Position numbers and translations under genes: made by a program
Notes under the pieces: generated by a model
What the model was told of the DNA's origin: nothing
Database searches by the model: none
The model's input: only the letters and a program-made list of their open reading frames with translations
In this document: positions 1,493-63,191 of the stretch, piece after piece
Position numbering within the stretch: the first letter of the stretch is position 1
How the letters are laid out: each line of letters starts with the position of its first letter
Source: Candidatus Uhrbacteria bacterium
GTDB taxonomy: Bacteria > Patescibacteriota > Patescibacteriia > GWA2-47-26
Direction: 5' to 3'
NCBI GenBank assembly: GCA_016187515.1
Contig: JACPJN010000007.1
Location: 4,046 to 68,045 of the forward strand
DNA: 64,000 nucleotides

Positions 1493-2185
1493 CTACTTCT
1501 TTTTCTCCTCTTTCTTCCCCTCTTCCTCTTCTTTCTTCGCTTTTTCCGCTTTCTTCTCATCCCCAACAGAGGTAATTTTCTCAATCACCTCTTTTTCCGA
1601 AGGCGCGGGAGCGGCCTCTTCTTCCACTCTGGGCGGCTGGGCCAGGACGACCTTCTCTTCCGCCCGGGTCAGTACCGTAATGCCGCTGGGAATCTTCAGG
1701 TCTTTAACGGCGATCGTATCCTCAAAAGTCCGCAGCGGCGCGATATCCACTTCAATCTCGTGCACCAAATCCTGCGGCAAACATTCCGCCTGGAGTTCTT
1801 GTAAATTCTTGACCAGCACCCCGCCAAGCTCTTTGATCGCCGCGGATTCGCCTTTGAACTTGAGCGGAATGGTCACCTTCAATTTTTCGGTCATGGAGAC
1901 CTGATAAAAATCCACGTGAATGGGCTTAAGATGGAGGTGATGCTTGGCCACCTCCTGAATCAACACCTTAACCGGCGCTTCATCTCCAACCTGAAGATCC
2001 ACCAAGGTGGACTCCCCGGCCTGCTTATACACTTTTTCAAACGCGCGGGCCTCAATCTGCACGTTTTGAGACGGCACATGATGCCCATAGAGCACGGCTG
2101 GGACAACCCCCGCGCGCCGAAGCGCCGGGGCTTTTTTCCCCGCCGTATCCCGCCTCTGCGCTTGTAAACTGATGGTTTGCTGCAT
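1493..2185 (-). CDS. rplY: 50S ribosomal protein L25/general stress protein Ctc
   Basis: 230 aa; N-terminus MQQTISLQAQRRDTAGKKAPALRRAGVVPAVLYG matches L25/Ctc; Lys/Glu-rich C-terminal tail. Confidence 0.85.
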   Translation of the reverse strand: MQQTISLQAQRRDTAGKKAPALRRAGVVPAVLYGHHVPSQNVQIEARAFEKVYKQAGESTLVDLQVGDEAPVKVLIQEVAKHHLHLKPIHVDFYQVSMTEKLKVTIPLKFKGESAAIKELGGVLVKNLQELQAECLPQDLVHEIEVDIAPLRTFEDTIAVKDLKIPSGITVLTRAEEKVVLAQPPRVEEEAAPAPSEKEVIEKITSVGDEKKAEKAKKEEEEGKKEEKKK

Positions 2186-2325
2186 ATTATAGATTTGAGA
2201 GCGCTTTGCAATTCAATACACGTGCACAAAAGAATACCATATCCCGCGTACCCTTGTCAACTCCACCGGTATAGTGTACGATCAAGGCGCTCTTTTAACC
2301 CGTACACTCAAAAAGGAGGAAAGGC

Positions 2326-2623
2326 CATGGGCGAACCCGAACATCCGCTGATTATCCTGCTATTTGGGGCATTCATTGTTCTTTTTTTCGCCGTGCTTAT
2401 CTCTCAAGCGCTCCGCGGATGTCCGCATGCGGACGAAGATGTCCAAGGGGACATTAGAGGCGATCACCAAAGGATGTCTGACCGCGCGATCCGCGACGCC
2501 GGCGCGCCCGGACCGGACCGCTTTACCGGCCGGATCTTCATCCGCCCGGAATTCAAGTACAGCGACCATGCTCCGGACACGGCCGATGATCTGGATTTGC
2601 GCCGGGACGGCGGCACGCTGTAG
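2326..2623 (+). CDS. small membrane protein (hypothetical)
   Basis: ATG at 2326 preceded by AAAGGAGGAAAGGCC; one TM helix (LIILLFGAFIVLFFAVLISQAL); GC-rich relative to flanks. Confidence 0.4.
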
Positions 2624-2686
2624 ACGCCACGCTGCACTTTGTGCTACACTAAACTTGTCCACAAGGACAGAAAGGAGAGAAATCCC

Positions 2687-2827
2687 ATGGGAGACGGCTG
2701 TTACCCAGACCACTTCATCGTCCTCGGCAAGCTCATCGACGGCGGAAGGTTCGGCGAAGACGGCGGACGCGTCTGCGGCGTGACCATCTGCATGGCCCTG
2801 GACAAGACCCACCTCTCGATCCACTAG
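2687..2827 (+). CDS. 46-aa Cys-containing small peptide (hypothetical)
   Basis: MGDGCYPDHFIVLGKLIDGGRFGEDGGRVCGVTICMALDKTHLSIH; preceded by conserved leader tgctacactaaacttgtccacaaggacagaaaggagagaaa shared with peptide gene at 3993. Confidence 0.35.
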   Translation: MGDGCYPDHFIVLGKLIDGGRFGEDGGRVCGVTICMALDKTHLSIH

Positions 2828-2919
2828 GAGTAGCGCGAGAGCGCGCGTCAATGCCCCGATCGCAGCAGCGGGGCTACTCCACGCACCTTCAACTCAACCG
2901 CACGAAAGGAGGAAACGCC

Positions 2920-2946
2920 ATGTGCTCGCTCACGTGCACCACGTAG
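2920..2946 (+). CDS. 8-aa peptide MCSLTCTT (possible mini-ORF)
   Basis: ATG 8 nt after strong SD AAAGGAGG; directly followed by GC-rich hairpin + T-run terminator; leader shares tccacgcac motif with 8840-8900 leader. Confidence 0.25.
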   Translation: MCSLTCTT

Positions 2947-2972
2947 CCACACGGCTACCCGCTCTTCCACGC

Positions 2973-3016
2973 ACCCCGGCAACGCATCTGCATCACGCGT
3001 CGCCGGGTTTTTTTAA
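2973..3016 (+). terminator. rho-independent terminator (copy 1 of duplicated module)
   Basis: ccccggcaacgc...gcgtcgccggg hairpin followed by ttttttt; the same ~55-nt module recurs at 4090-4147. Confidence 0.6.
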
Positions 3017-3019
3017 TCT

Positions 3020-3183
3020 AAGGGACTGTTGCCGAATATCATTTCTACTGCAATTTCCAGATTTCGGCTGCAGCTTTGCAAAAATTGTTCAACAGATACT
3101 CCGTATATGCTTCACAATTTTTGCTTTGCTTCGCTCAAAATCTGAAAATTTCGTTACGAAAGCATATTCGGCAACAGTCCCTT
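3020..3183. mobile_element. MITE-like element with 20-bp perfect terminal inverted repeats
   Basis: aagggactgttgccgaatat at 3020-3039 and its exact reverse complement at 3164-3183 flank an AT-rich 124-bp core; no ORF. Confidence 0.5.
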
Positions 3184-3202
3184 TCCGCAAAGCGATTTCC
3201 AA

Positions 3203-3640
3203 TCAAAATTTGTGTGTGTTTAAAAATTCGCCGGGCGTTATAATAAACACTGGCAATCGTAAATCGGCTAGCTTGATATTGCGAAGAAGATGTTTCTGAT
3301 CCAGAGTCAAAAGAATGGGGGTATCACTCAACAGCGCCCCCAATACAATTGGGATGTCTTTATCCGGGACGCAGGAACGCAGACGATACTCCAACACCAA
3401 AGGAATGTCGGCAAGGGATTGAATGCGGGGTTGAATTGCGGTCAAGTTATTATAATGCCGGGCAACTGCCTCGCTACCTAGCTTTTTCTCAATATTTCGC
3501 TCGGCTTCCGCAAGCGCATGGGCTACCGTGACGACGCGTATCTTTTCCCGCTTAGCCAATTCAATAACAAAGTGCGATCCACCACTGGGTGACCGCACTG
3601 CGGCAAAAAATATATTCGCATCCAAAAATACCGGCTCCAT
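3203..3640 (-). CDS. PIN-domain toxin (VapC-like)
   Basis: 145 aa; N-terminal FLDANIFFAA... with acidic residues typical of PIN nucleases. Confidence 0.65.
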   Translation of the reverse strand: MEPVFLDANIFFAAVRSPSGGSHFVIELAKREKIRVVTVAHALAEAERNIEKKLGSEAVARHYNNLTAIQPRIQSLADIPLVLEYRLRSCVPDKDIPIVLGALLSDTPILLTLDQKHLLRNIKLADLRLPVFIITPGEFLNTHKF

Positions 3641-3664
3641 AGCAAGAAATAGCCCGCCCCTTTA

Positions 3665-3871
3665 TTATACGGTGAGCAATTTTTCCAATCGCGCGCGCGT
3701 GGCACGATCAATCCGATCCATCTTGGCAAATTCGCGAATCCGCTTTTCAGAATATTCCTCAATTCCCCAGCGGAGCTCCGGAATGAAACGTAGCATCTCA
3801 TTATAAAGCGTTGCTCTCCTTTTCAGAATTTCATAACGGCTCTTTGGAAGCGTCACAGTTGAAGAAGACAT
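3665..3871 (-). CDS. putative antitoxin (VapB-like) upstream of PIN gene
   Basis: 68-aa ORF immediately upstream of and co-oriented with the PIN gene, the classic toxin-antitoxin arrangement. Confidence 0.45.
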   Translation of the reverse strand: MSSSTVTLPKSRYEILKRRATLYNEMLRFIPELRWGIEEYSEKRIREFAKMDRIDRATRARLEKLLTV

Positions 3872-3992
3872 AAAAATAGATAATCATTTTACTTATGTGG
3901 TTAAGTATACCAATCCCCTACCCCGCGTGTCAAACTTATCTATTGTGTGCTACACTAAACTTGTCCACAAGGACAGAAAGGAGAGAAAATTC

Positions 3993-4079
3993 CATGCGCA
4001 CGTTCTTTTTCGGACTGGCACTGGTGCTGACCATGCTCACGGCGCCCAACGTGGCCCACGCGTTCGTGATCATGTTCTA
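3993..4079 (+). CDS. 28-aa hydrophobic peptide (type I toxin-like/small membrane peptide)
   Basis: MRTFFFGLALVLTMLTAPNVAHAFVIMF; same leader as 2687 peptide; followed by terminator module copy 2. Confidence 0.35.
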
Positions 4080-4089
4080 GCCCCGCCGG

Positions 4090-4147
4090 CTACGCTCTTC
4101 CACGCACCCCGGCAACGCATCTGCATCACGCGTCGCCGGGTTTTTTT
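4090..4147 (+). terminator. rho-independent terminator (copy 2 of duplicated module)
   Basis: gctcttccacgcaccccggcaacgcatctgcatcacgcgtcgccgggttttttt, identical to 2960-3016. Confidence 0.6.
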
Positions 4148-4168
4148 AATTTTTTCCTCCTCTCCACT

Positions 4169-4367
4169 AAAGTATAAGGATGTCTCGTGACGGCGACTCG
4201 CAGCAAAAATGTTGCGCAGGTCGAGCGGGCAAGGCGTCCCGACCGCGGTCGGGACGAGCGAGACCGAGCACAAGCAACGGCCGCCTCGCTGGGGCGGCCG
4301 ATTGCGGTTTTTGCGCGAGTCGCCGGCACGGGACAGCCGTCGCGCTACCCCCTCACCCTTATACTTT
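4169..4367. other. GC-rich nested-hairpin element (structured RNA or MITE-like)
   Basis: Outer IR aaagtataagg/ccttatacttt (4169-4179, 4357-4367); inner IR gacggcgactcgc/gcgagtcgccggc; perfect palindrome gtcccgaccgcggtcgggac 4236-4255; hairpin ggccgcctcgctggggcggcc. Confidence 0.4.
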
Positions 4368-5442
4368 GCACCACCCCCAGCATTAAAAAATTCGCAAGCA
4401 GCGCGGAACCCCCGAGCGACACAAACGGCAGCGGCAGCCCGACAATCGGCAGAACCCCAAGATTCATTCCCGCGTTAAGCAAAACCTGCACCCCTAAAAC
4501 CAAGAAAAACCCCGCCACGCAAAACATCGCGAAACCGTCAGTAATGGCGCGCAGCAGATTCGCGAGCCGCCACACGATTACCCCATAAGCCCCCAGTACC
4601 AGAAGCACGCCGAAAAGTCCAAGCTGTTCGGCCAGCACCGCGAAGATAAAATCGGTCTGCGCTTCGGGCAAAAACCGCAGCTGCGATTGCGAACCCTGGC
4701 CAAGGCCCCGGCCGGCAATCCCGCCGGCGCCCACGGCAATCACGGATTGGCGAATATTATAGCCATGCCCAAACGGATCCCGTTCGGGATCAAGAAAACT
4801 CAACACCCGCTCTTTTTGATAATCGCGCAAGAAAAATTGCCAGCTCAACAGCGCGGCAAAAACCACCGCGATAATTCCGCCCCACAGGTAGCGTCCGGGC
4901 ACTCTGGCAAAAAGCACCATCCCAAAAGTAATGGCTAAAAGCACAAGCGCCGAACCCAGATCCGGCTGGGCCAGGGTCAGCGCGGTATAAAGCCCGCCCA
5001 AAATGCCGACCCCCAGCATGACTTTCAGATCCACCAGATGCGCTTTGCGATCAAGATAATTCGCGACGACCATAATCAGAATGATTTTGGCGAGCTCCAC
5101 CGGCTGCGCGGTATAACCCAGGATGGAAAGCCAGCCGCGCGTTCCGCGCACGGTCACCCCAAACAGGATCACCCCGGTAAGCGCCGCGGCTCCGGCCACA
5201 TAGAGAAAACGCGTTAGCGAACGCCACACCCGAAAATCCACCAGGGTCAGTCCGAGGGCGGCCGCAAACCCGACCCCCGTAAACACCAATTGTTTTCTGA
5301 AATTGAAAAGCCGCCCGGGGTCTTGCGCCAGATCCACGCTCCAAATCGCTAAGAGCCCGAGGGCAACCAAAATCCCCACCGCTGAAAAAAGGATCCAATC
5401 AATACGCCGAAAAATACGCAAAATTTGCGGCATAAATTCCAA
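4345..5442 (-). CDS. ftsW: SEDS-family peptidoglycan glycosyltransferase FtsW/RodA
   Basis: 365 aa polytopic; motifs PDLGSALVL, LPFVSLGGSALLANF characteristic of FtsW/RodA/SpoVE. Confidence 0.85.
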   Translation of the reverse strand: MEFMPQILRIFRRIDWILFSAVGILVALGLLAIWSVDLAQDPGRLFNFRKQLVFTGVGFAAALGLTLVDFRVWRSLTRFLYVAGAAALTGVILFGVTVRGTRGWLSILGYTAQPVELAKIILIMVVANYLDRKAHLVDLKVMLGVGILGGLYTALTLAQPDLGSALVLLAITFGMVLFARVPGRYLWGGIIAVVFAALLSWQFFLRDYQKERVLSFLDPERDPFGHGYNIRQSVIAVGAGGIAGRGLGQGSQSQLRFLPEAQTDFIFAVLAEQLGLFGVLLVLGAYGVIVWRLANLLRAITDGFAMFCVAGFFLVLGVQVLLNAGMNLGVLPIVGLPLPFVSLGGSALLANFLMLGVVQSIRVRG

Positions 5443-6414: not shown

Positions 6415-6529
6415 AGTCTTGTATTGTAGCACAAAATGTGATATACTGGTATCTAGTAATCGACCCATGGTGTTATTGAGTGGTTATGTTATTGGATGTT
6501 CAATACTTAATAACTTAATCACTTACTAA

Positions 6530-8704
<2,175 letters not shown>

Positions 8705-8705
8705 A

Positions 8706-8800
8706 ACGGAACACCCCCTCTCGCTCCCCCTCATTAAGGGGGAGAAATCGACAAACAATTTCCTCCCCTTTTCAAGGGGAGGTTGGGAGGGGTCAGGCGG
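8706..8800. repeat. REP-like palindromic elements after gyrB
   Basis: ccccctctcgctccccctcattaagggggag...cctccccttttcaaggggaggttgggaggggtc. Confidence 0.7.
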
Positions 8801-8897
8801 AAACAATTGAATGTCTTACCGCCGGGGCTTGCCCCCGGCTTTTTGCTATGCTACACTCCCCTTAGCCGCACCTTCCACGCACAAAGGAGAAATCGCC

Positions 8898-9221
8898 ATG
8901 CCGTACTGTCTGATTGGTAAGCTCGTTGTCTGGGGCGTGCTACCGCTCGCCTATCTTTTCTTCTCCATCTGGGCCTGCAGTGCGCTAACCCAGGCACTGC
9001 GCAAACCGCTGCTTGGCCACTACTACGGCCCGAACTTCTGGATCGAGAGCGCCTACAACGCGATCGACTACACCGGGCCGAACACCTTCATGGCCGGACT
9101 GAACACGGTCATCGTTTTTCTCCTGGCCCCGTTCCTCAACACGCTCGGCTTCCTTGAATTCGGCATCCGCTACGCCCTCAAGCGCTGGCGCAAGACCGCC
9201 ACCCCCGCCGCGCTCGCCTAG
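8898..9221 (+). CDS. small polytopic membrane protein (hypothetical)
   Basis: 107 aa from MPYCLIGKLVVWGV; SD AAAGGAGAAATCGCC; leader contains gctacact and tccacgcac motifs shared with 2.6-4.0 kb peptide genes; GC-rich terminator with T8 at 9300-9345. Confidence 0.4.
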   Translation: MPYCLIGKLVVWGVLPLAYLFFSIWACSALTQALRKPLLGHYYGPNFWIESAYNAIDYTGPNTFMAGLNTVIVFLLAPFLNTLGFLEFGIRYALKRWRKTATPAALA

Positions 9222-9407
9222 TCCGCGCCTTCCCATCATAGTTTACCCGCCTAACTTTACCCTCTGCCGAAGGAAAGTTTGGCGGGCTCCTTCCCGTGGC
9301 CCACGCCCGCGCGCGCCGCCACGGTGTTTTTTTTAATTTTTGTCTAAGTTCTAAGCCAGGATACGAACCAGCTACCCACCTTGGCAATCACCTCCTGACC
9401 ACCGGAT

Positions 9408-9479: not shown

Positions 9480-9620
9480 ATCCCCCTCGCCCCGACTCGC
9501 TGTGAATTATGAGGGCGTCACGATTCGTAACCCCCTCTAACTCCCCCTTACCCTAAGGGGGAGAAAAATTTCATCCGTGATCCGTGGCTATCCTGTTCTC
9601 TATCCGCGGCTATCCGTAAC
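9480..9620. repeat. REP-like element with 3' extension gtgatccgtggctatcc...ctatccgcggctatcc
   Basis: aatccccctcgcccc...cgtaaccccctctaactcccccttaccctaagggggag followed by the extension; same composite at 21030-21212. Confidence 0.65.
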
Positions 9621-10887: not shown

Positions 10888-11313
10888 ATGGCTAAGAAAA
10901 TCAAGACCATCATCAAACTCCAAATCCCGGCCGGCAAAGCCAATCCGGCCCCGCCGGTGGGTCCGGCGTTAGGCCAGCATGGCCTGAACATCGCGGAATT
11001 TTGCCAGAAATTCAATGCCGCGACTTCAAAAATGGGAGGCGATATAGTTCCGGTGGAAATTACCGTATTTGAAGATCGCACTTACACCTTCCGCACTAAA
11101 ACCCCTCCGGCTTCCGACCTGCTCAAGAAAGCCGCGGGCATTGAAAAGGGCTCCGGAAAACCGCTGACTGAAAAAATCGGCAAGGTCAGCCGGGCGCAAG
11201 TCCGGGAGATCGCGCTGCGCAAACTTCCGGATTTAAATACTAAGGACATTGAGAAAGCCATAAAAACCATCGCGGGTACAGCCAGACAAATGGGGCTGGA
11301 AGTTATCGGCTAA
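10888..11313 (+). CDS. rplK: 50S ribosomal protein L11
   Basis: 141 aa; [35 protein letters not shown] is canonical L11. Confidence 0.95.
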
Positions 11314-11339
11314 GCGGTCCTATTGGACCCAGACGACCT

Positions 11340-12020
11340 ATGACACATGGAACTAAATATCAAGCCGCCGCCAAACTCGTGGACCAAGATAAACTCTACA
11401 AACCGGAAGAGGCCTTGGAGCTCGTAAAAAAAACTTCCACGGCGAAATTTGACGCGGCGGTTGAAATCCACTGCCATCTGGGCATTGACGCGTCAAAAGG
11501 CACCGAGCAAGTCCGCAGTAACGTAAGTTTCCCGCACGGAACCGGCAAAACCAAAAAGGTCATCGCCTTTGTCGGCCCAACCTTGGAAAAGCAGGCCGAA
11601 GAGGCCGGCGCCGACATTGTCGGAAACGACCGCCTGATTGACGAGATCGCCGGCAGCGGCAAGATTGATTTTGACGTGGCGGTGGCCACTCCGGACATGA
11701 TGCCGCGCCTCGCCAAGATCGCCAAGATTCTTGGTCCCAAAGGACTAATGCCCAACCCCAAGTCCGAAACCGTCACTACGGACATTAAAAAAACCATTGC
11801 TGAATTAAAGCGCGGCAAAGTCAACTTCAAAAGCGATAATACCGGAAATGTGCACATCGCCATCGGCCGAGTTTCCTTTGAAACCGTAAAACTGCTGGAA
11901 AATTTTGAGAAATTCATGGACGCGCTGCGCCGCGCCAAACCCTCTTCTTCCAAAGGAATTTTTGTCCGCTCCTGCGCGGTCACCGCCACCATGGGCCCGG
12001 CGATCAAAGTGAGCATTTAA
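11340..12020 (+). CDS. rplA: 50S ribosomal protein L1
   Basis: 226 aa; typical L1 sequence and position after rplK. Confidence 0.95.
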   Translation: MTHGTKYQAAAKLVDQDKLYKPEEALELVKKTSTAKFDAAVEIHCHLGIDASKGTEQVRSNVSFPHGTGKTKKVIAFVGPTLEKQAEEAGADIVGNDRLIDEIAGSGKIDFDVAVATPDMMPRLAKIAKILGPKGLMPNPKSETVTTDIKKTIAELKRGKVNFKSDNTGNVHIAIGRVSFETVKLLENFEKFMDALRRAKPSSSKGIFVRSCAVTATMGPAIKVSI

Positions 12021-20111: not shown

Positions 20112-20127
20112 ATACAACTCAATCACC

Positions 20128-20420
20128 CCTCTTAAGATAAGAGGGGGTAGGGGGAGTTATGAACTATGTACATCTCGTAACCCCCTCTAACTCCCCCTTA
20201 CCCTAAGGGGGAGAATTTGATTGATTGTACCACAAAAAAAGAAAGGGCGCCCCGAAGGGAACCCGTGGAACACACTGCTTGGGTGGAACACCCTCACCCT
20301 ACCCTCTCCCATCAAGGGAGAGGGATTGCCCTTTTGCTTCCTCTCCCCTTTGTGGGAGAGGATTGAGGTGAGGGGGGCCCTACCGCGTTTCCCAGCCAAA
20401 ACGGCGCTGGAGCGCGCGGA
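20128..20420. repeat. cluster of REP-like palindromic elements
   Basis: cccctcttaagataagagggggtagggggagttatgaa...cgtaaccccctctaactcccccttaccctaaggggga and more copies to ~20420; tracked ORFs 20187..20552 and 20221..20607 here are artefacts. Confidence 0.7.
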
Positions 20421-23059: not shown

Positions 23060-23170
23060 CCCTTTCAAATTCTCCCCCCTTAGGGTAAGGGGAGGTTGGG
23101 AGGGGTTACGAACCGTGCAAAGCTCATAACCCACCCTCGCCCTCCCTTATCTTAAGGGAGGGAATTCCAT
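23060..23170. repeat. REP-like palindromic element pair
   Basis: cccccccttagggtaaggggaggttgggaggggttacgaa...cccaccctcgccctcccttatcttaagggaggg. Confidence 0.7.
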
Positions 23171-39647: not shown

Positions 39648-39797
39648 CCAACTCGCGCGGACTCTCACCGGTTCGCACCTTTTTTTCTATGGGACTATTG
39701 CCGGGACTGTTGCCGAATGTGCTCTCGTAGCGAAAAGCGCGCCCGCCCCTTCGACATCCAACTCCGGCTATGCTTCCTCTGGCGGCCATTTTCTCCC

Positions 39798-39843
39798 GCC
39801 CCGCCCGCGCGCTTCCTGCGCCGGCCGGGGTTTCTTTTTTATT
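39798..39843 (+). terminator. cassette terminator module (copy A)
   Basis: ccccgcccgcgcgcttcctgcgccggccggggtttctttttt; near-identical copies at 40893-40938 and 41744-41788, each followed by att(a/g)acgcaccaccat. Confidence 0.65.
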
Positions 39844-39995
39844 AACGCACCACCATCTCGATCGCAGCCAGAATTGATTCCCGTTTTTTAAAGTCGCCTC
39901 GCTTGACGTATTTCAATGCTCCGTACAATTCTTCTAAATTTTTCTGGAGACCACTGATTTTCCTGGAAACCGCCGTCGACAACTACTGTCCATTC

Positions 39996-40031
39996 TGTCC
40001 CAAAATCTCACGGCCGTGAGATTTTGGGACA
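39996..40031. repeat. 36-bp perfect palindrome TGTCCCAAAATCTCACGGCCGTGAGATTTTGGGACA (copy 1)
   Basis: Exact inverted repeat followed by aatttttgttttg; identical copies at 40991, 41807, 42915, 46695. Confidence 0.85.
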
Positions 40032-40089
40032 ATTTTTGTTTTGCGATCCTCGTCAAGTGGATAACCCCCCCTTTTTTTCTACACCCCCC

Positions 40090-40118
40090 TTGACAATCAA
40101 ACAAAATCATGCTATTAT
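40090..40118 (+). promoter_or_regulatory. cassette B promoter TTGACA-N17-TATTAT
   Basis: TTGACA 40090-40095, TATTAT 40113-40118; embedded in a ~110-bp module (39996-40125) almost identical to 40991-41125. Confidence 0.65.
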
Positions 40119-40194
40119 AGCAGGATGCCTTTTGGCGTCCTGTGTGGCATTTCGCCGCGCGGCATGAACTTTCCATCAGCAAAAAGAGGACATC

Positions 40195-40851
40195 ATGCTC
40201 GTTCATTGGTTGTTCAAGGACGTCTTCATGATGGTGGCAATCGGTTTCATCGCGGTGGTCGCGCTCACCATCATCCTACATGCGGTGATGCGACCCATCC
40301 TGCGGAAGCTCACACTTGGCGACTACGAGAAATTCCTCCACAAGCCGAGCAACTATGTGGTGCAGGAGTATCCCTCTGCGTCCCACGGTGGCGGCGCGCT
40401 CAACAGGGCTGCAGTGAGACGACATGCCGAACGTTGGGCTAAGCTCGGCAACGAATGGGGACTCGCCATGGTGGCCTGCGTGGCGATCATCGCTGCAGTG
40501 ATGATCTTCGGCATCCACACGGCGAGCCAGAATTCCAATCCCCTGGAGGTGATCACGCCATACCTCAACTGGATTGGTGTGTGGTTCTTCCTTGCCATCG
40601 CCTGCCTGGTGCCGCACAAGATCTGTCTGACCATCGCGCGGTGGTACGAAAACGGCGCCGAGAACGGGAGGTTGCCGCCCCTGCCCGGCGCCCCCGAGAA
40701 CTCGCTGGCTCGGATCTCAATATCGGTCAAGAACGATCCCGATCCTCTCCCCTATGCGATCAAGGACATCAACCAGTTCGTCGCGATGGTGGTGGAGGGA
40801 CCACAATTCTCGTGGTGGCGGTACCAGCTTCGTCGGATGTTTTGTCGGTAG
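40195..40851 (+). CDS. membrane protein (hypothetical, ~3 TM), cassette B
   Basis: 218 aa; SD AAAGAGG; TM helices; no known domain. Confidence 0.5.
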   Translation: MLVHWLFKDVFMMVAIGFIAVVALTIILHAVMRPILRKLTLGDYEKFLHKPSNYVVQEYPSASHGGGALNRAAVRRHAERWAKLGNEWGLAMVACVAIIAAVMIFGIHTASQNSNPLEVITPYLNWIGVWFFLAIACLVPHKICLTIARWYENGAENGRLPPLPGAPENSLARISISVKNDPDPLPYAIKDINQFVAMVVEGPQFSWWRYQLRRMFCR

Positions 40852-40892
40852 TGGACCGTACCTACATGTGTCCCACCGGCGAAACTCTCTGT

Positions 40893-40938
40893 TCCGCCCC
40901 GCCCGCGCGCTTCCTGCGCCGGCCGGGGCTTCTTTTTT
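40893..40938 (+). terminator. cassette terminator module (copy B)
   Basis: ccgccccgcccgcgcgcttcctgcgccggccggggcttctttttt. Confidence 0.65.
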
Positions 40939-40990
40939 ATGTGCAGGTTGTGTGTATATGAGCTTTTCCCATTTGCCACCCGTTTGCCAC

Positions 40991-41026
40991 CCGCATCCGA
41001 TTGTCCCAAAATCTCACGGCCGTGAG
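40991..41026. repeat. 36-bp perfect palindrome (copy 2)
   Basis: Identical to copy 1. Confidence 0.85.
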
Positions 41027-41092
41027 ATTTTGGGACAATTTTTGTTTTGCGATCCTCGTCAAGTGGATAACTCCCCCCTTTCTACATCCCTC

Positions 41093-41121
41093 TTGACAAT
41101 CAAGCGATTATATGCCATTAT
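41093..41121 (+). promoter_or_regulatory. cassette C promoter TTGACA-N17-CATTAT
   Basis: TTGACA 41093-41098; -10 41116-41121. Confidence 0.6.
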
Positions 41122-41162
41122 TAAACTAGGCAACCCCGCCTGAAAGTGAAAGTGAGGATACC

Positions 41163-41723
41163 ATGCAGCGAACCTTTGTTCTTTTCGTCTTTCTTGGCGC
41201 CGCCTGCGGCGGCAAGGCAGGCCCGACGCGTCCCGAGCTCGGCAGTACCGAATGCTATGCTGCCCAAGCGCTCCCTCAAATCCGGGGCGATCGGCCTCTG
41301 CACTGCGCGTTCCAGGATCAGCTGCCTGCCGAGGTGTCTCACCTCGTCGCGATGGCACGCCTGAGGATTGAGTGCGATCCGGAAAAAGTGATGGCCGCGG
41401 TGTCGTTTAACCACCACTTGCCGGAAGAAGAACCGAAATTCATTGAGGTGGCATGCAATGATGACTACCCAACCGAGCTCGTCTGCGGATGGACTACCAA
41501 CTTCCGCATCACCGCCCACGACTTCGGCGAAGGAACAACTCGGGTAATCATCCGAAGCGACTGCCCTTTGCCCGAATACGGAGGCGTCCGCTGCAGCGAT
41601 CAGATTCCCCCGCATGCAATATTCACCTCAACAGAAAGACATTGCGAGACGGGTGACGCGCTGCTTATCAATCCGGTCAGCTCCAACCAGGAAATTACGG
41701 TCTGGGCCGACCCGATCGACTGA
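41163..41723 (+). CDS. Cys-rich secreted/lipoprotein-like protein (hypothetical), cassette C
   Basis: 186 aa; signal peptide MQRTFVLFVFLGAAC; at least 9 Cys; SD GAGGA. Confidence 0.5.
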   Translation: MQRTFVLFVFLGAACGGKAGPTRPELGSTECYAAQALPQIRGDRPLHCAFQDQLPAEVSHLVAMARLRIECDPEKVMAAVSFNHHLPEEEPKFIEVACNDDYPTELVCGWTTNFRITAHDFGEGTTRVIIRSDCPLPEYGGVRCSDQIPPHAIFTSTERHCETGDALLINPVSSNQEITVWADPID

Positions 41724-41743
41724 TCGCTCCACCAACCCGTTCC

Positions 41744-41788
41744 CCCCCCGCCCGCGCGCGCCCACGCGCCGGCCGGGGTTTCTTTTTT
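41744..41788 (+). terminator. cassette terminator module (copy C)
   Basis: cccccccgcccgcgcgcgcccacgcgccggccggggtttctttttt. Confidence 0.65.
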
Positions 41789-41806
41789 ATTGACGCACCA
41801 CCATTC

Positions 41807-41842
41807 TGTCCCAAAATCTCACGGCCGTGAGATTTTGGGACA
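41807..41842. repeat. 36-bp perfect palindrome (copy 3)
   Basis: Identical sequence; between convergent cassette C and PaaX-like gene. Confidence 0.85.
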
Positions 41843-41941
41843 ACCTTTGTTTCTAGATCCTTTTCGAGATCCTCTTTCTTCCGCCCCTTTTTGTACCATC
41901 TAGTGCTCGATAATACTCAACCAACGCTTGATACTTTGGTA

Positions 41942-42649
41942 CTATTTTGACTTTCTCCTTTTCTGCTTCACTTTAAAATATGCACGCGGTGATAAATCAT
42001 AAATCTCACCATCTTCCTTCTGTCGCTGCATCTGCCGCCAAACCCGTATTACGCGCGGGCTGCATTTTTTACAGTCGGCTTCAATCAGCGCGTAATATCG
42101 GTGCAAGCCAAGGTACTTTAATAAGCCGTGTAGCGCTGGTTCGGGATTGTACTTTGTAACCCACACGGAAAACTGCCACATTTGAAATCCGCTTGCTTTA
42201 AGAAGTTTCCGTAAGTGATCGCGATGCTTTCGCAACCGTTCTGGAATATCAAAAATTACCACCCGCCAGGCGCGATCCCACTTTTGTTTGCGCTGATCTT
42301 CCATGTGCTGTATAAATCGTATCCGCAGTATTTCGTACTTACCCTTGGCAGTCAAACGATACAACTGCTCCTCTCCTTCTTGCACTAACTCGATGTAATG
42401 TTCCTGCTTTAAATAGTGGATACGCCGCATCAGCCGCCTATATTCTCGTTTTCTGCGCGCGCGTTCACGTTCTATATAGGCCACTGGTCCAAAGCCGCCT
42501 AAACTCCAGCGTACATGCGATGGCACGTGGATACCTCCCCCCTTTAGATTTGTAGCCTGAAGTTCGAGCAATGCGATTTGTAACTCTTGCAGTTGTAATC
42601 GAGTACTCATAGATATGAGACCGCTGAACAATTGATTATTCGTGTTCAT
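41942..42649 (-). CDS. PaaX-family transcriptional regulator (winged HTH + PaaX_C-like domain)
   Basis: 235 aa; YRLTAKGKYEIL resembles PaaX wHTH FYSLTxKG; WDRAWRVVIFDIPERLRKHRDHLRKLLKASGFQMWQFSVWV matches PaaX_C WDGxW...LxxxGFGxLxxGVW; family match is inference from motif recall, no search run. Confidence 0.55.
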   Translation of the reverse strand: MNTNNQLFSGLISMSTRLQLQELQIALLELQATNLKGGGIHVPSHVRWSLGGFGPVAYIERERARRKREYRRLMRRIHYLKQEHYIELVQEGEEQLYRLTAKGKYEILRIRFIQHMEDQRKQKWDRAWRVVIFDIPERLRKHRDHLRKLLKASGFQMWQFSVWVTKYNPEPALHGLLKYLGLHRYYALIEADCKKCSPRVIRVWRQMQRQKEDGEIYDLSPRAYFKVKQKRRKSK

Positions 42650-42914
42650 TCGTAAGGCCGCCTGGCCAGGGCAGCGCAGGAAACCGGCGATTCCGGCGGC
42701 CGTCTATTCGCCTGCCCCGCACCAAGCCGCAGTCGGCGCCTCTTTAATACCCTAGGGATAGCCGCAGGCGGCATCCGTGGCTCGCCCAGCCATTCACCAC
42801 TGCCTTTCTTCGGGCTTTGGTGCTGGGGTGGATATTCGTGTGAACCTGCGCAGGTGTTAGTTCTTCAACATTCTCAGATATGCGCTTCAAAGGGACATTC
42901 AGCATCCGGCTTTT

Positions 42915-42950
42915 TGTCCCAAAATCTCACGGCCGTGAGATTTTGGGACA
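42915..42950. repeat. 36-bp perfect palindrome (copy 4)
   Basis: Identical; upstream (gene sense) of PaaX-like gene, beyond a ~260-nt GC-rich leader. Confidence 0.85.
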
Positions 42951-43044
42951 AAAGCGCACGGTTACGTTTTTGTAATTTTATGTACAATTTTTTTCGAAAT
43001 CACTCCGCGAAATCACTCCGGAGATTTCAATTCTACGATGCATA

Positions 43045-44211
43045 TCACCGCAGTGCATTCTTGACTACTTCCACAATTCTCCCCCCATACCTCCCCACAT
43101 CGCGGACGCTGACCGCGGCCACCAGCAGAATCAGCAAGACAAAACCCGCGGCGTGCACCCAGCCCTCAACGCGCCGGGCCACCGGCCGGCCGCGCAACTT
43201 TTCAATCAAAATAAACAGGATGCGTCCGCCATCCAGCGCCGGAAACGGGAGCACATTTAGAATTGCCAGGTTAATCGAAAGGATGGCCATAAACTGAAGC
43301 AGATTTACTAATCCTTGCCGCGCCGCCTGTCCGGTTAACACCGCGATGCCAACCGGACCGGTAAGATCCGCGCCAACCGGCCTACCTAAAACCGCGTCCC
43401 GGATCAGTTCCGCGAAAGCTACCACAATCGTTTTTGAAAGCACCGCAGTAATTTCCACCGCTTTAGGGACCGCGAGCCACAGCGGATAGCGGACGGTTCC
43501 CACATCCGCAATCATCACGCCGATTCCCGGAGCTTTGGTTTTTTCTAAAATAATCGGCGTAACTTCTGCCTGTCGTAGCTGACCTTGGGCCTGAAATTCA
43601 ACGCGAATGGGTTGGCTTAAAAACTCGGCCGCCACATTTTTAACCGCCTCCGCTTTCTCAAGCGGCTGGCCATTTAGCGAAATAATCCGCGCGCCAGGGG
43701 CAATTCCGGCGCGCTCTGCCGGGCCACCGGGCAGCACTCCCATTACCTCCACATGCCGATCTTGTATCCGCGCGTGCGCGGAAATGTCATCTTCAATTAC
43801 TTGCGGAAAACCAAGGGCAAATCCTCCCGAAATCAAGACGACCGCGAGTAACGCATTCATGAGCACTCCGGCGGCAATAATCCAGACCCGTCGGTAAGCC
43901 GGCAGTCCGGCAAAACTATCCCCGGACTCGATTTCTTCTCCGGATTCGCCTTTGATTCTCACAAATCCGCCAAACGGAAGCGCGTTGATGGAGTAAACAG
44001 TCCCTCCCTCGCGCGCCTTAAAATCTTTCGGATTGCCCCAGACGATCTTACGACGCCCGTTCACCCGCTGAATGCCTACTACCCGCGGGGGAAATCCAAA
44101 TCCAAATTCATCTACCCGCAAACCCGCGCGCTTGGCGGTAATAAAATGCCCGAACTCGTGGACAAAAACTAAAACGGAGAGGACGAGGAGGAAAATGAGG
44201 AGAGTGAGCAT
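43045..44211 (-). CDS. rseP: RIP metalloprotease RseP (site-2 protease, M50 family)
   Basis: HEFGHFITAK HExxH in first TM, PDZ domain, LDGG motif; probable start MLTLLIFLLV. Confidence 0.85.
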   Translation of the reverse strand: MLTLLIFLLVLSVLVFVHEFGHFITAKRAGLRVDEFGFGFPPRVVGIQRVNGRRKIVWGNPKDFKAREGGTVYSINALPFGGFVRIKGESGEEIESGDSFAGLPAYRRVWIIAAGVLMNALLAVVLISGGFALGFPQVIEDDISAHARIQDRHVEVMGVLPGGPAERAGIAPGARIISLNGQPLEKAEAVKNVAAEFLSQPIRVEFQAQGQLRQAEVTPIILEKTKAPGIGVMIADVGTVRYPLWLAVPKAVEITAVLSKTIVVAFAELIRDAVLGRPVGADLTGPVGIAVLTGQAARQGLVNLLQFMAILSINLAILNVLPFPALDGGRILFILIEKLRGRPVARRVEGWVHAAGFVLLILLVAAVSVRDVGRYGGRIVEVVKNALR

Positions 44212-44328
44212 AGAATATAGTTGTGGGTGTAGTTGTCGCAGCCCGTACCGTCTACGGTGTAGTCCTACGGCCAATTGACAACACCTTATGACGAAACCGA
44301 TACGAGCAGCGAAACCGCCACCGTATAA

Positions 44329-45153
44329 CTACAGCCTTGCGGCTTTAAGATTAATGGACATTCCGAGCCATTTTTCCGCCAGTTCCTGAAATTTCGGCGT
44401 TTTTTTGCTGACATAGAATTCGTGTTTCGGAGCACTCATAACTCCCCTAACCCCTCTTACCTTAAGAGGGGAATCCGATTGATCGTTCCTCCCCTTAAGG
44501 TAAGGGGAGGCAGGAGGGGTTATGAACTGTTGAACTTCACGCGCCACCGTCTCCGCCGAATCCACGAGCTGCACACGATTGCCCACAATATCAGCAATCA
44601 CGCCTTTAAGCCAGGGGTAATGCGTACACCCTAAAATAAGCGTATCAACCTGCGCGCGCTGAAACGGCGCAAGATACTGCTCCGCCACTTCATAGGTCGT
44701 CGGATGCACCAAGCGCCCAGCTTCAACCAGCGGAACGAACAAGGGACATTCCCGGGCATTAATGCCGCGGCACCATTTTTGATACGCGCCGCTTTGCACA
44801 GTGGTCCGCGTGCCAATTACTCCAATCCGGCCATTATGTGTCCGGCGCAGCGCTTCGCGCACGGCCGGAGTAATCACTTCAAAAATCGGCACGCTGGGAA
44901 ATTCCTTGCGCAACGCTAATCCCGACACCGCGGAGGCCGTATTGCAGCCCACCACAATCATTTGCGCTTTTTTCTTTAGTAAAAACTTCGCGTTTTGCAG
45001 CGCGTAGCCCGCCACGGTCTCCGGCGGCTTATTGCCGTACGGCGTTCGCGCCGTATCGCCAAAATAAATAATTTTCTCGCGGGGTAGCGCCGCCATTACG
45101 GCTTTCGCCACGGTCAATCCGCCGAGTCCTGAATCGAAAATTCCGATTGTCAT
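44329..45153 (-). CDS. murI: glutamate racemase with in-frame REP-like insertions
   Basis: IGIFDSGLGGLTVAKAV, GCNTAS, GCTHYP motifs; inserts DSPLKVRG(VRG) encoded by REP copies at 44440-44528. Confidence 0.85.
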   Translation of the reverse strand: MTIGIFDSGLGGLTVAKAVMAALPREKIIYFGDTARTPYGNKPPETVAGYALQNAKFLLKKKAQMIVVGCNTASAVSGLALRKEFPSVPIFEVITPAVREALRRTHNGRIGVIGTRTTVQSGAYQKWCRGINARECPLFVPLVEAGRLVHPTTYEVAEQYLAPFQRAQVDTLILGCTHYPWLKGVIADIVGNRVQLVDSAETVAREVQQFITPPASPYLKGRNDQSDSPLKVRGVRGVMSAPKHEFYVSKKTPKFQELAEKWLGMSINLKAARL

Positions 45154-45950
45154 AGAACCCCAAGCCAAGAGCGAATAAATTGTTTTGTCTGCTTTGGACC
45201 GGAAACCGCAATGCACTTAACTCCAGTACGGCGCACGGCAAAGTCGTTGCCACCGGGAAATAACGCATCGCCGATAAATAACATCTGCCGTTTTGGAACA
45301 TGTAAATGTTTTTCAATCTGTCGTATCCCATAGGCCTTATCAATACCCTTTTTGGTCACATCAATGGAGGTATAACCCGCAGCACGAACTTCCAAGTTCG
45401 GTAAACGACGCTGCAGAGCGCGCGCGAGTTTCATTTTAATCTTTTTATTCCCTGCCAGCCACTGCTTTTTAAGTTCTACCCCGCGCTGACCTAAGGACGC
45501 GACAATTTCCTGTCCCAAAGCGGAAAAAGTCACTTGCGTGCCGCGATCTTCAATCACCGAGCCATAAACCTTCTTGGGATGCACATAACCAACTTCTCTG
45601 AATGCCTCTTGGAAAGCTTTGCGGATCGCCTGTTTTTCTCTTTTGGTAAGTTTCAATTCATACACCTTTTTCCATCCAGACGCGTAACGATAAAAAGCCG
45701 TGGCCGTGGTGGGAAACAGAAAAAGATTTCCCAGCAACTTTGTTGGCGCGCGCAAATGACCGATAAATTGACTTTTAAAAACGTCGTATTTGCCGCCGCC
45801 GATAACCGCCACTATTTTCTTTTTTAATAGTGCCTTAAGCAGTCCCGACATCTCTTTATCCATTGGGGATTTGGTCTCGGTAAGCGTCCCGTCCAAGTCA
45901 AACACAATAAGCGTTTGCTTGATTAGATCGGCATCTTGGCGGGCTTGCAT
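45150..45950 (-). CDS. HAD-superfamily hydrolase (IIB-like)
   Basis: Motif I LIVFDLDGTLTE, motif IV FIGDALFPGGND. Confidence 0.65.
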   Translation of the reverse strand: MQARQDADLIKQTLIVFDLDGTLTETKSPMDKEMSGLLKALLKKKIVAVIGGGKYDVFKSQFIGHLRAPTKLLGNLFLFPTTATAFYRYASGWKKVYELKLTKREKQAIRKAFQEAFREVGYVHPKKVYGSVIEDRGTQVTFSALGQEIVASLGQRGVELKKQWLAGNKKIKMKLARALQRRLPNLEVRAAGYTSIDVTKKGIDKAYGIRQIEKHLHVPKRQMLFIGDALFPGGNDFAVRRTGVKCIAVSGPKQTKQFIRSWLGVL

Positions 45951-46031
45951 ATAATAGTTTCCCATTATATACTATCTACATCAATTCGCCAATTCCATAA
46001 TTCATGCCTCATAATTCATAATTCACTCAAT

Positions 46032-46589
46032 ATGCCTACCTACCTTTGGATAATTCTCGCCGTCGCCGCCGTCCTAGTTCTTTGGGTCATTGCCATCTAT
46101 AATGGCCTGATAACTCGCCGAAACCGCGTGCAAGAGTCCTGGTCTGATATTGATGTTCAGCTAAAACGCCGCTATGATCTTATCCCCAACCTCATGGAAT
46201 CCGTCAAGGGATATATGCAACATGAGCGGGGCACGCTTGAAAAAGTTACTGCGGCGCGTACCGCGGCAATGGGCGCGAAAACCATGGCCGAACATGCCAA
46301 ATCAGAAAACATGCTGACCGAAGCATTAAAATCCATTTTTGCCGTAGCGGAAAATTATCCGGATCTCAAGGCCTCGCAAAACTTCCTCCAGCTCCAAGAT
46401 GAACTTTCCGACACGGAGAACAAAATCCAAGCCGCCCGACGGTTCTATAACGGGAATGTCATGAACTTTAACACGCGCATCCAAAGTGTGCCCGCCAATC
46501 TCGTGGCCGGCATGTTCAGCTTCAAAACGCGAGAATTTTTTGAACTTTCCGAACCCGCCGCGCGCGAGGCGGTAAAAGTGCATTTTTGA
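46032..46589 (+). CDS. lemA: LemA family protein
   Basis: N-terminal TM then LemA signature region NRVQESWSDIDVQLKRRYDLIPNL...; terminator ccccgcccccacaaaggcgggtttttgttttt at 46630-46660. Confidence 0.8.
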   Translation: MPTYLWIILAVAAVLVLWVIAIYNGLITRRNRVQESWSDIDVQLKRRYDLIPNLMESVKGYMQHERGTLEKVTAARTAAMGAKTMAEHAKSENMLTEALKSIFAVAENYPDLKASQNFLQLQDELSDTENKIQAARRFYNGNVMNFNTRIQSVPANLVAGMFSFKTREFFELSEPAAREAVKVHF

Positions 46590-46694
46590 TTCGCGAATGA
46601 TTACAAATTACTCACGAATGTATACGAATCCCCGCCCCCACAAAGGCGGGTTTTTGTTTTTCTGGAAACTACTGTCTGAAACGACCGCCTCTCC

Positions 46695-46730
46695 TGTCCC
46701 AAAATCTCACGGCCGTGAGATTTTGGGACA
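46695..46730. repeat. 36-bp perfect palindrome (copy 5), with extended imperfect arms 46683-46740
   Basis: Between convergent lemA and 46914..47525 gene. Confidence 0.85.
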
Positions 46731-55953: not shown

Positions 55954-55985
55954 GTAGAATAACTTCTAATGGTGTTCCAAACTTT

Positions 55986-56057
55986 GCCCCTGTAGTTCAA
56001 TGGATCGAATGCAAGATTGCGGATCTTGTGATCCAGGTTCGATTCCTGGCGGGGGCA
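55986..56057 (+). tRNA. tRNA-Arg (anticodon GCG), no encoded CCA
   Basis: 7-bp acceptor gcccctg/cgggggc with one U.G pair; anticodon stem caaga/tcttg, loop ttGCGga; T-arm ccagg-ttcgatt-cctgg; acceptor extended by tgttccaaacttt / agagtttggaaca. Confidence 0.6.
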
Positions 56058-56258
56058 GAGTTTGGAACAGCATGTCCCGATCGCGATCGGGATGATCTAG
56101 GTTCTGCGCCAAAGGCGCATCCGCCTCAGGCGGAGATTCCTGGCGGGGGCAGAGTTTGGAACGGCATGTCCCGATCGCGATCGGGATGATCTAGGTTCTG
56201 CGCCAAAGGCGCATCCGCCTCAGGCGGAGATTCCTGGCGGGGGCAGAGTTTGGAACAG
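56058..56258 (+). repeat. tandem 94-bp direct repeats (2 units + partial) each ending in the last 17 nt of the tRNA
   Basis: gattcctggcgggggca at 56041, 56135, 56229 (period 94); unit contains palindrome cccgatcgcgatcggg and two short hairpins. Confidence 0.8.
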
Positions 56259-60196: not shown

Positions 60197-60229
60197 TGGG
60201 GAAGAGTTATTGAGTTATTGGTTATTAAG

Positions 60230-60628: not shown

Positions 60629-60668
60629 CCTAATAACTCAATAACTTAATAACTCGGTACTCTCAATT

Positions 60669-61106: not shown

Positions 61107-61249
61107 AAATCTATGCGGCTTTTAGCCGCATAGATTTGGGGGTGCAAAGTTATTTAGTTATTGAGTTATTACAATCGATCAAACCAACGTAATAACTCAA
61201 TAACCAATAACCTAATAACTCTCACCTCATAACCCAATAACTCAATAAC

Positions 61250-63099: not shown

Positions 63100-63191
63100 A
63101 GCGAGAGTTATTAGGTTATTGAGTTATTAGGTTATTAGTTTGTGAGTCACGATAACTTAATGACTTAATAACTTAATCACTTAATAACCCA

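Follow-up and report, generated by a model that had tools for sequence, protein, structure and literature searches.

The 64,000-nucleotide (nt) stretch of contig JACPJN010000007.1 analyzed here (the window) comes from Candidatus Uhrbacteria, an uncultured groundwater bacterium of the candidate phyla radiation (CPR). Between its ftsW and L25/Ctc genes lies an islet that holds four small open reading frames (ORFs A to D), two copies each of a leader (L1 and L2) and a terminator (T1 and T2), a gene pair encoding a PIN-domain protein and its partner, and two long hairpins; a fifth small ORF, ORF E, lies beyond gyrB. ORFs A and B match the NCBI entries HYW17_02930 and HYW17_02935. An earlier note on this DNA had described the islet as a GC-rich cluster of small peptide genes with shared leaders, duplicated terminators and strong Shine-Dalgarno (SD) sequences, and had proposed that the peptides might be toxins, precursors of bacteriocins or of ribosomally synthesized and post-translationally modified peptides (RiPPs), or signals. 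The coordinates of all features are listed in Table 1.

The FtsW scan returned 80 Patescibacteria loci, most of which keep the gene order gyrB, 299-amino-acid (aa) gene, ftsW, L25 and DUF3048 gene, and L25 follows ftsW immediately in 63 of the roughly 80. Among these 63 loci the ftsW-L25 gap is bimodal, at either 13-177 nt or about 394-550 nt. From the ftsW stop to the L25 ATG the distance is 2160 nt in the window and 93 nt in the closest relative, whose FtsW is 63% identical and which is here labelled L008 (L062, L088 and L089 are likewise labels for related loci compared here). Directly after ftsW, L008 carries a same-looking L25 promoter, TTGACA...atatggTAT(T/C)CT. From this difference in gap length, positions 2262-4344 are a lineage-specific accessory insertion of ~2.1 kb just upstream of the L25 promoter. 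ORFs A, B and D, the PIN protein and the PIN partner were not detectable in any relative among the ~80 loci, and ORF E is likewise not in L008. The synteny of the ftsW-L25 junction across related loci thus bears out the claim that the region is accessory. The description as GC-rich holds for 2400-3000 and 4050-4500 (GC 0.60-0.63, flanking genes roughly 0.45-0.60) but not for the AT-rich middle of the islet at 3000-3900 (0.39-0.45). In L062, the one longer-gap locus inspected, the gap contains a 119-aa Cys-rich ORF (CPFC...CLSC; 11133-11492) that neither the window nor L008 has.

All four small ORFs of the earlier note are present, with their coordinates, and for ORF A also the length, corrected as in Table 1. 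By hydropathy, ORF A combines a single hydrophobic helix near the N-terminus (about residues 7-28) with a tail rich in Asp and Arg. ORF B, which has a grand average of hydropathy (GRAVY) of 0.18 and no hydrophobic stretch, gave an uninformative AlphaFold2 model (pLDDT 43); its NCBI version has 62 aa and starts at the TTG at 2639, inside the L1 promoter. ORF B shares the reading frame of ORF A, from which one TAG and the L1 module separate it (2621-2686). ORF D is basic, has a GRAVY of 1.57 and is laid out as Arg2, a 15-residue hydrophobic core, A-H-A and then the five residues FVIMF, an arrangement that makes secretion or membrane insertion plausible. The earlier note had divided the peptides into Cys-bearing, soluble-looking and strongly hydrophobic ones; ORF B is soluble with three Cys, ORF C contains Cys, and ORF D alone is hydrophobic.

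Proteome-scale homology searches covered ORFs A and B, ORF D (28 aa) being too short for them. ORF A retrieved only itself from 5.8 billion proteins, and an exhaustive HMMER search of 1.84 billion representatives added a single weak match (E 1e-4), which falls on repeated segments of a protein of 3045 aa; the protein search with ORF B also returned itself only. Pfam, NCBIfam, PHROGs and PADLOC yielded nothing meaningful for ORFs A, B, D and E. ORF A has a weak match to the uncharacterized phage family phrog_31944 (E 4e-4), the aligned part of which includes the hydrophobic helix. A relationship of ORF A to ORF E was considered and rejected (BLASTP E 3.4, no similarity).

Codon composition provides a further test of whether the ORFs are genes. 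The GC contents at codon positions 1, 2 and 3 (GC1/2/3) are 0.60/0.41/0.57 in core genes (standard deviation of GC3 0.09-0.10 for core-gene fragments), 0.61/0.41/0.87 in ORF B, 0.54/0.36/0.89 in ORF D and 0.55/0.45/0.84 in ORF E, while GC3 of at least 0.83 is reached by just 0.2-0.3% of core-gene fragments of equal length. The excess of GC3 over GC2 is significant in ORF B (Fisher p 8e-6) and ORF D (Fisher p 7e-5), the codon score of ORF D exceeds that of 97.6% of shadow ORFs, and the periodicity of both ORFs is in frame with their SD-led ATG. No codon periodicity was found in the non-ORF parts of the islet at 2828-2919 and 4151-4344. Because of this strong in-frame signal, ORFs B and D are likely to be real coding sequences, belonging to the compositional class of ORF E. 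The coding status of ORF A (0.70/0.44/0.66) is ambiguous. The idea that the TAG stops of all the small ORFs are special was dropped, as TAG ends 41% of long ORFs and two of the stops share one repeat.

Table 1. Features of the islet, of the ORF E cassette and of the remaining window (aa, amino acids; SD, Shine-Dalgarno sequence)
Feature	Position	Strand	Description
ORF A, 98 aa	2327-2623	plus	orphan; NCBI hypothetical protein HYW17_02930
ORF B, 46 aa	2687-2827	plus	soluble, 3 Cys; orphan; HYW17_02935
ORF C, 8 codons (MCSLTCTT)	2920-2946	plus	TAG stop inside repeated terminator module
ORF D, 28 aa (MRTFFFGLALVLTMLTAPNVAHAFVIMF)	3994-4080	plus	signal-peptide-like
ORF A upstream region	2254..2326	plus	candidate promoter TTGTCA-N17-TACGAT and E-type start region GTACACTC..AAAGGAGGAAAGGCC
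Leader L1	2640..2682	plus	extended -10 TGCTACACT 2642-2650; hairpin 2655-2670; SD GGAG 2674-2677
Leader L2, identical to L1	3946..3988	plus	-10 box 3948-3956; hairpin 3961-3976; SD GGAG 3980-3983
Spacer	2828..2919	plus	two GC-rich hairpins, then decayed E-type leader GCTAC-TCCACGCACCTTC..CCGCAC-GAAAGGAGGAAACGCC
Terminator T1	2944..3017	plus	mini-hairpin TAGCC-ACAC-GGCTA at stop codon, box CCCGCTCTTCCACGCAC, stem CCCGGC..GCCGGG (2975-3007), T7 run
Terminator T2	4078..4150	plus	identical to T1 over 4093-4150
ORF E cassette	8846..9335	plus	promoter TATGCTACACT; leader with TTCCACGCAC and SD; ORF E; terminator about 9286-9335
ORF E, 107 aa	8898-9221	plus	two hydrophobic stretches (hydropathy); ~5 kb from islet
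PIN-domain toxin (VapC-like), 145 aa	3203..3640	minus	PF13470 PIN_3, 29.3 bits (cut-off 27)
68-aa partner, candidate antitoxin	3665..3871	minus	upstream of PIN gene, 24 nt apart
AT-rich 164-nt hairpin	3020..3183		just downstream of PIN gene; fold -67 kcal/mol, z -9.6
GC-rich 200-nt hairpin	4168..4367		right edge of insertion; fold -114 kcal/mol, z -6.1
L25/Ctc gene	1493-2185	minus	left neighbour of islet
L25/Ctc promoter	2231..2260	minus	TTGACA-N18-TATTCT with TG (promoter scan); left edge of insertion
FtsW/RodA gene	4345-5442	minus	right neighbour of islet
GyrB gene	6545-8704		beyond ftsW, upstream of ORF E
REP-like copies	8706-8801, 9525-9566, 13029, 18101, 19014, 20121-20215, 23070-23164, 36111, 36768, 38030, 38963, 44485	both orientations	
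REP-like copies in relatives	L008 6880-6960; L089 90-190		
8-nt tandem repeats	6503-6550, 60206-60246, 60626-60665, 61185-61269, 62775-63200		

The shared leader and the duplicated terminator reported earlier are both perfect repeats. The leader in front of ORFs B and D is 43 nt long (2640-2682 and 3946-3988, 100% identical), and the terminator repeat, corrected to 58 nt, covers 2960-3017 and 4093-4150, again with 100% identity; when small indels are allowed, it reaches back to the TAG stops of ORFs C and D (2944-3017 and 4078-4150). The elements of the leader are, in order, TG-C-TACACT (extended -10), the hairpin TTGTCC-ACAA-GGACAG, AAAGGAGAG (SD) and the ATG. On the plus strand of the islet, L1 and L2 were the sole extended -10 sites recovered by a consensus scan. 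Predicted intrinsic terminators, composed of a 6+4-bp GC-rich stem followed by U7, lie at 2975-3014 and 4108-4147. These observations support a reading of the 43-nt element as a promoter with a short 5' untranslated region (UTR) carrying the SD, and of the 58-nt element as an intrinsic terminator. Exact 20-23-nt cores of the leader had no match in species-representative genomes, JGI metagenomes or viral contigs, those of the terminator and of the hairpin inverted repeat had none in viral contigs, and blastn of 2262-3020 against phage and plasmid collections returned nothing.

The leader hairpin of the earlier note is predicted in both transcripts and lies at their extreme 5' end, but it stops 3 nt before the SD, and in the minimum-energy folds the SD has either no pairing or a weak one that does not involve the hairpin. 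Occlusion of the SD by this hairpin is thus not supported by the predicted folds. At z -1.3 and -1.5 the whole transcripts are no more stable than shuffled sequences, and the islet gave no relevant Rfam match at gathering or permissive thresholds, for which reasons a structured small RNA was rejected and the B and D transcripts are read as mRNAs.

This exposed SD bears on the proposal that ORF D, and perhaps ORF A, encodes a small membrane-damaging peptide of a type I toxin-antitoxin system. ORF D would suit such a role by its length, its GRAVY and its basic character, by its repeated flanks and by the neighbourhood of another toxin-antitoxin pair. Type I toxin mRNAs typically hide the SD, however, whereas the leader hairpin leaves it unsequestered, and ORF B shares the leader yet is not hydrophobic; ORF C does not fit the profile of a small hydrophobic toxin either. 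Consensus scans of the minus strand detected no sigma-70 or extended -10 promoter antisense to ORF B or D, although weak or atypical promoters would escape such scans, and the terminator is unidirectional. With no match to a toxin family in Pfam, NCBIfam or PADLOC either, we consider a type I toxin improbable.

Secretion of the peptides was another of the suggested roles, in which ORF D would be cut after A-H-A to release FVIMF as a signal while ORF B or C would be a bacteriocin or RiPP precursor. The n-, h- and c-regions of ORF D, with Ala at -3 and -1 before FVIMF, and the Cys residues of ORFs B and C are in keeping with it. Against it, ORF B has no leader or cleavage motif, ORFs A, B and D match no family, and no modification enzyme, ABC exporter, immunity gene, Rgg/RNPP receptor or two-component system is present in or next to the islet. 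Next to the small ORFs stand L25, the PIN pair, FtsW and a 299-aa hypothetical gene, Pfam, NCBIfam and PADLOC searches yielded nothing relevant to a RiPP or bacteriocin, and no Rgg, RNPP or TPR regulator was found within the islet or its flanks. Such roles are therefore very improbable, and the analysis gives no support to the peptides being toxins, bacteriocins or signals; what stands of the earlier interpretation is the accessory islet with its expression modules.

The strong SD claimed for every small ORF is present, as AAGGAG is found 5-10 nt before the ATG of each of ORFs A to E. On both strands of the window AAGGAG-N5-10-ATG occurs at eight sites, five of which are those of ORFs A to E; a sixth, at 27977, is a coincidental occurrence within the 3' end of a gene. 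For the small ORFs, duplexes with a canonical anti-SD have energies of -9 to -11.9 kcal/mol (-11.8 for ORF A), compared with a median of -2.2 kcal/mol for 45 long genes, of which just three reach -8 kcal/mol, and the density of the SD motif across related loci is about 0.05 per kb. Core genes thus largely lack an SD, and SD-led initiation is exceptional in this genome. This scarcity agrees with published evidence that some Parcubacteria have lost the anti-SD, which is reported to escape detection in about half of them (Tsurumaki et al. 2022, PMC9297842). No 16S rRNA 3' end for checking the anti-SD was present in the window or in the other related DNA fetched. Because the SD is retained in three of three ORF E orthologues while the remaining leader turned over, its conservation suggests that the ORF E-type SD is used.

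The source of the repeated modules is indicated by ORF E, a small membrane protein gene that two related organisms also keep behind gyrB. Its homologues, 56% identical in a protein database entry (P0003) and 36% identical in a Hainich groundwater contig, both occupy the place of ORF E after the gyrB terminator (L088 and L089) and have their own promoter, a strong SD and a related terminator; the promoter sequence TATGCTACACT is retained in L088. The orthologues also have a GC3 of 0.77 and 0.70, against 0.53-0.61 in their neighbour genes. The earlier note had observed that leader motifs of the islet recur in front of ORF E, and this was confirmed for TGCTACACT at 8849 and for TCCACGCAC at 8874, the latter motif occurring four times where 0.39 occurrences are expected. 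The similarity extends beyond these motifs: the leader repeat and the promoter/leader of ORF E agree at 39 of 57 positions (z 6.3), the ORF C and ORF E leaders at 38 of 56 (z 5.8), and local alignments of the latter pair reach z 8.5-11. The start region of ORF A is a shortened E-type sequence, and its leader scores z 4.8-5.6 against those of ORFs E and C.

At the 3' side the correspondence is similar. The 3' UTR in L089, CCCCGCTCTTTCC..CCACGCA..CCCCGGCA..GCCGG-T7, is homologous to the terminator repeat, CCCGCTCTTCCACGCACCCCGGCA..GCCGGG-T7, and the pattern CCCGCTC(C)TTCC..CCACGCA..CCCCGGCA..GCCGG-T7 is common to this repeat and the ORF E 3' UTRs of L088 and L089. A covariance model (R1), trained on T1, T2 and three ORF E terminators and used to search 1.24 Mb of related DNA, matched T1 (86.7 bits), T2 (90.8 bits) and the three ORF E 3' ends, with no further significant match elsewhere. 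The coding sequences of ORFs A, B, C and D have no similarity to ORF E. From these alignments, the leader repeat, the ORF C leader and the terminator repeat are diverged paralogues of the promoter/5' UTR and the 3' UTR/terminator of ORF E, and this homology leads us to read the islet as built from copied E-type control modules. Both this paralogy and the rarity of SD-led starts had been missed by the earlier note.

ORF C is a case in point. Its leader, which has no intact -10 box, derives from that of ORF E by copying and decay and runs straight into an E-type terminator, for which reason MCSLTCTT, previously listed as a gene, is probably an incidental ORF, a by-product lying between the two copied elements. 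A comparable arrangement exists in L089, where a second, decayed E-type leader without an ATG lies between the ORF E homologue and the terminator.

Such units raise the possibility that the whole islet is debris of decay, namely what large deletions left of at least one duplicated ORF E cassette, perhaps with a gyrB-like fragment. The leaders and terminators would then be scars, and the ORFs behind the copied SD-ATG would no longer be functional or would never have been so. The ORF C unit, with just eight codons between leader and terminator, and the second leader in L089 agree with this account, as do ORF lengths that fit random expectation and the orphan status of all searchable ORFs. A further point in its favour is that residues 11-31 of ORF B (IVLGKLIDGGRFGEDGGRVCG; 2717-2779) weakly resemble the ATP-lid motif of GyrB (6875-6937; shuffle p 0.0005); among 387 chunks of 2.16 kb scanned with an N-terminal profile of GyrB, ORF B gave the sole non-GyrB match. 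Neither BLASTP nor a PDB search recovered this similarity, however, and we treat it as a weak lead; derivation of ORF D from gyrB DNA was rejected, the 14-nt match being non-significant (p 0.085). The complete identity of L1 with L2 and of T1 with T2 means that the duplication is recent or has been homogenized, unlike old debris, and ORFs B and D keep a strong in-frame GC3 bias together with an intact promoter, SD and terminator. We regard decay of the whole islet as unlikely, although by no means negligible.

Between the two copies of the repeated modules lie the PIN pair and the AT-rich hairpin. The PIN protein, whose N-terminus reads FLDANI, scores above the PIN_3 cut-off and is preceded by a co-oriented partner, and the pair has its own promoter (TTGACA-N18-TATACT at 3933-3904). 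These features are consistent with the VapBC pair of the earlier note, but the 68-aa partner had no significant family or domain match in Pfam or NCBIfam. No SD precedes the first gene of the operon and the GC3 of the PIN gene is 0.48, and for these two reasons the pair is set apart from the small ORFs.

One long hairpin follows each copy of the terminator. That at 3020-3183, with 26-nt arms (3020-3045 and 3158-3183) that are 92% complementary, had been called a miniature inverted-repeat transposable element (MITE). The 164-nt hairpin with terminal inverted repeats is real, but searches of the 64-kb window and of viral contigs revealed no other copy, so that the label is unverified, and no flanking target-site duplication is evident. 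The hairpin at 4168-4367 likewise had no second copy in the sequence searched. The outer arm of this hairpin (4169-4182) repeats the final codons of ftsW (4354-4367) in inverted orientation, and the element could be a stabilizer or terminator at the 3' end of ftsW or an end of the insertion.

A tandem arrangement of this kind might in principle be produced by assembly, if two alleles (leader-B-C-terminator and leader-D-terminator), or a circle of leader, ORF, terminator, hairpin and PIN pair, had been stitched together. Logan unitigs from all samples do break in the repeats, one of them (L001) ending 30 nt into L1, and if the direct repeats recombined, circles of 1306 or 1133 bp would result. 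The repeats of 43 and 58 nt are nevertheless likely, as we assume, to be shorter than the reads, the junctions of terminator with hairpin and of PIN promoter with leader are present in independent contigs (L007), and a linear path through every junction requires the tandem order. In Logan assemblies of several samples, the L25-ORF A, gyrB-ORF E and PIN-pair junctions were confirmed independently. We judge an assembly artefact to be extremely improbable.

On balance, we consider it somewhat probable that the islet consists of autonomous, moron-like units for orphan small proteins that were assembled from reused E-type control modules. There would be two, possibly three, self-contained units, (A)-L1-B-(C)-T1 and L2-D-T2, with the PIN pair and the two long hairpins nested between them. 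Each unit would be read from a sigma-70-type extended -10 promoter (TGCTACACT) into a 5' UTR of roughly 30 nt that opens with a small stem-loop, leaves a near-perfect SD exposed and is followed, beyond the ORF, by a GC-rich intrinsic terminator. The E-type control modules would have been duplicated and reused around unrelated orphan coding sequences, the units would be transcribed, and ORFs A, B and D would be translated into small proteins. ORF A would then give a single-pass membrane protein, ORF B a small soluble Cys-bearing protein, and ORF D a hydrophobic signal-peptide-like peptide that inserts into or crosses the membrane, while the 5' stem-loop may serve to stabilize the mRNA rather than to regulate it. 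A bolder extension, which we think quite improbable, is that in a lineage whose core genes hardly ever use an SD the lineage-specific control set (extended -10, 5' stem-loop, perfect SD and dedicated 3' UTR/terminator) is a portable cassette that was copied repeatedly and captured or gave birth to small proteins, so that small-gene birth would be caught in progress in the islet.

Several findings weigh against autonomous units for small proteins. The GC pattern of ORF A would suit coding on either strand, and ORFs A and B are overlapped by an antisense ORF of 163 codons; neither A nor B has a homologue in any protein search. The lengths of 8, 28, 46 and 98 codons are those expected at random after an ATG at 62% GC (about 0.029 stops per codon, by our own calculation). 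Use of the SD is a prediction in a group of which about half is reported to lack the anti-SD (PMC9297842). Finally, the Logan contigs end within the repeats, so that the ordering of the B-C and D cassettes relies on reads spanning 43 and 58 nt.

Expression of the units would mean that a reduced, symbiotic CPR genome gains and expresses new small proteins by recycling one promoter/ribosome-site module and one terminator module around unrelated orphan coding sequences, and SD-led initiation would be reserved for a few accessory genes in a genome otherwise without it. This would offer a handle on whether Parcubacteria ribosomes use the SD and on the origin of orphan small genes in the CPR. If they are not expressed, the islet is ordinary debris of an accessory region.

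Several other features of the window were recorded. A second accessory-looking region (39796-46730) contains five copies of a perfect 36-nt palindrome, TGTCCCAAAATCTCACGGCCGTGAGATTTTGGGACA, and a terminator repeated three times (39796, 40894 and 41744); palindromes and terminators bracket hypothetical ORFs, one of which (40195-40851) has a high GC3 of 0.78. The host genome thus seems prone to duplicate control modules. Intergenic hairpins resembling repetitive extragenic palindromes (REP-like; ..CCCCCTTAnnnTAAGGGGG.. with GGGGGTTAYGA) are present in more than ten copies in both orientations and are common to related Uhrbacteria. Tandem 8-nt repeats of the AACTTAAT/AACTCAAT type stand directly upstream of gene starts such as that of gyrB, at the usual place of the SD, and may be a lineage-specific start-region or promoter feature. 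Within gyrB (7214-7268), an in-frame tandem repeat in 8-nt register encodes a reiterated NGTTEQRS-like insert. At 55985-56258, a tRNA-Arg(GCG) gene precedes a tandem array of two and a third units of 94 nt, each opening with a copy of the last 18 nt of the tRNA, which look like stacked att-site scars of an integrating element. The transfer-messenger RNA (tmRNA) gene at 60668-61106 encodes an unusually long 28-residue tag, AKNVSMGWNTLTNAFSTFRAPAFAHAAF.

The islet can be compared with several known systems. Ldr/Rdl and Ibs/Sib are type I toxin-antitoxin repeat loci of E. coli, and the islet is like them in the short hydrophobic peptide gene of ORF D, the duplicated units with conserved flanks and the structured 5' end; it is unlike them in that it has no homology to them, no promoter for an antisense RNA and an exposed SD, and in that its second unit encodes a soluble product. 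The SHP/Rgg, Phr and enterococcal sex pheromone systems of Firmicutes have short hydrophobic peptide precursors, and ORF D resembles these as a secretion signal followed by a few hydrophobic C-terminal residues, but it has no receptor or processing genes nearby, belongs to another phylum and has no homology to them. With VapBC modules the PIN pair shares the PIN_3 protein, encoded 24 nt after a small co-oriented gene, and its own sigma-70-like promoter, whereas its partner matches no known antitoxin family. The ORF E family shares its flanks with the leader repeat, the ORF C leader and the terminator repeat, and its high GC3 and SD-led start with ORFs B and D, while the coding sequences of ORFs A to D are unlike it.

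A further parallel in organization is the phage moron, an autonomous promoter-gene-terminator unit inserted between phage genes (PMC2920897). Like morons, the units of the islet have a predicted promoter of their own (2642 and 3948) and a factor-independent terminator, differ in composition from their surroundings (GC3 0.87-0.89 against 0.57 in the core), lie between genes that are adjacent in relatives and carry orphan cargo. Unlike morons, they lie between the chromosomal housekeeping genes ftsW and L25 of a CPR bacterium and not in a prophage, no phage genes being found near the islet and no match in phage or viral collections, and they reuse the same regulatory modules around unrelated coding sequences. 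Because the promoter, terminator and compositional features of morons are present and the phage context is not, the islet units appear, on this comparison, to work like morons without being morons.

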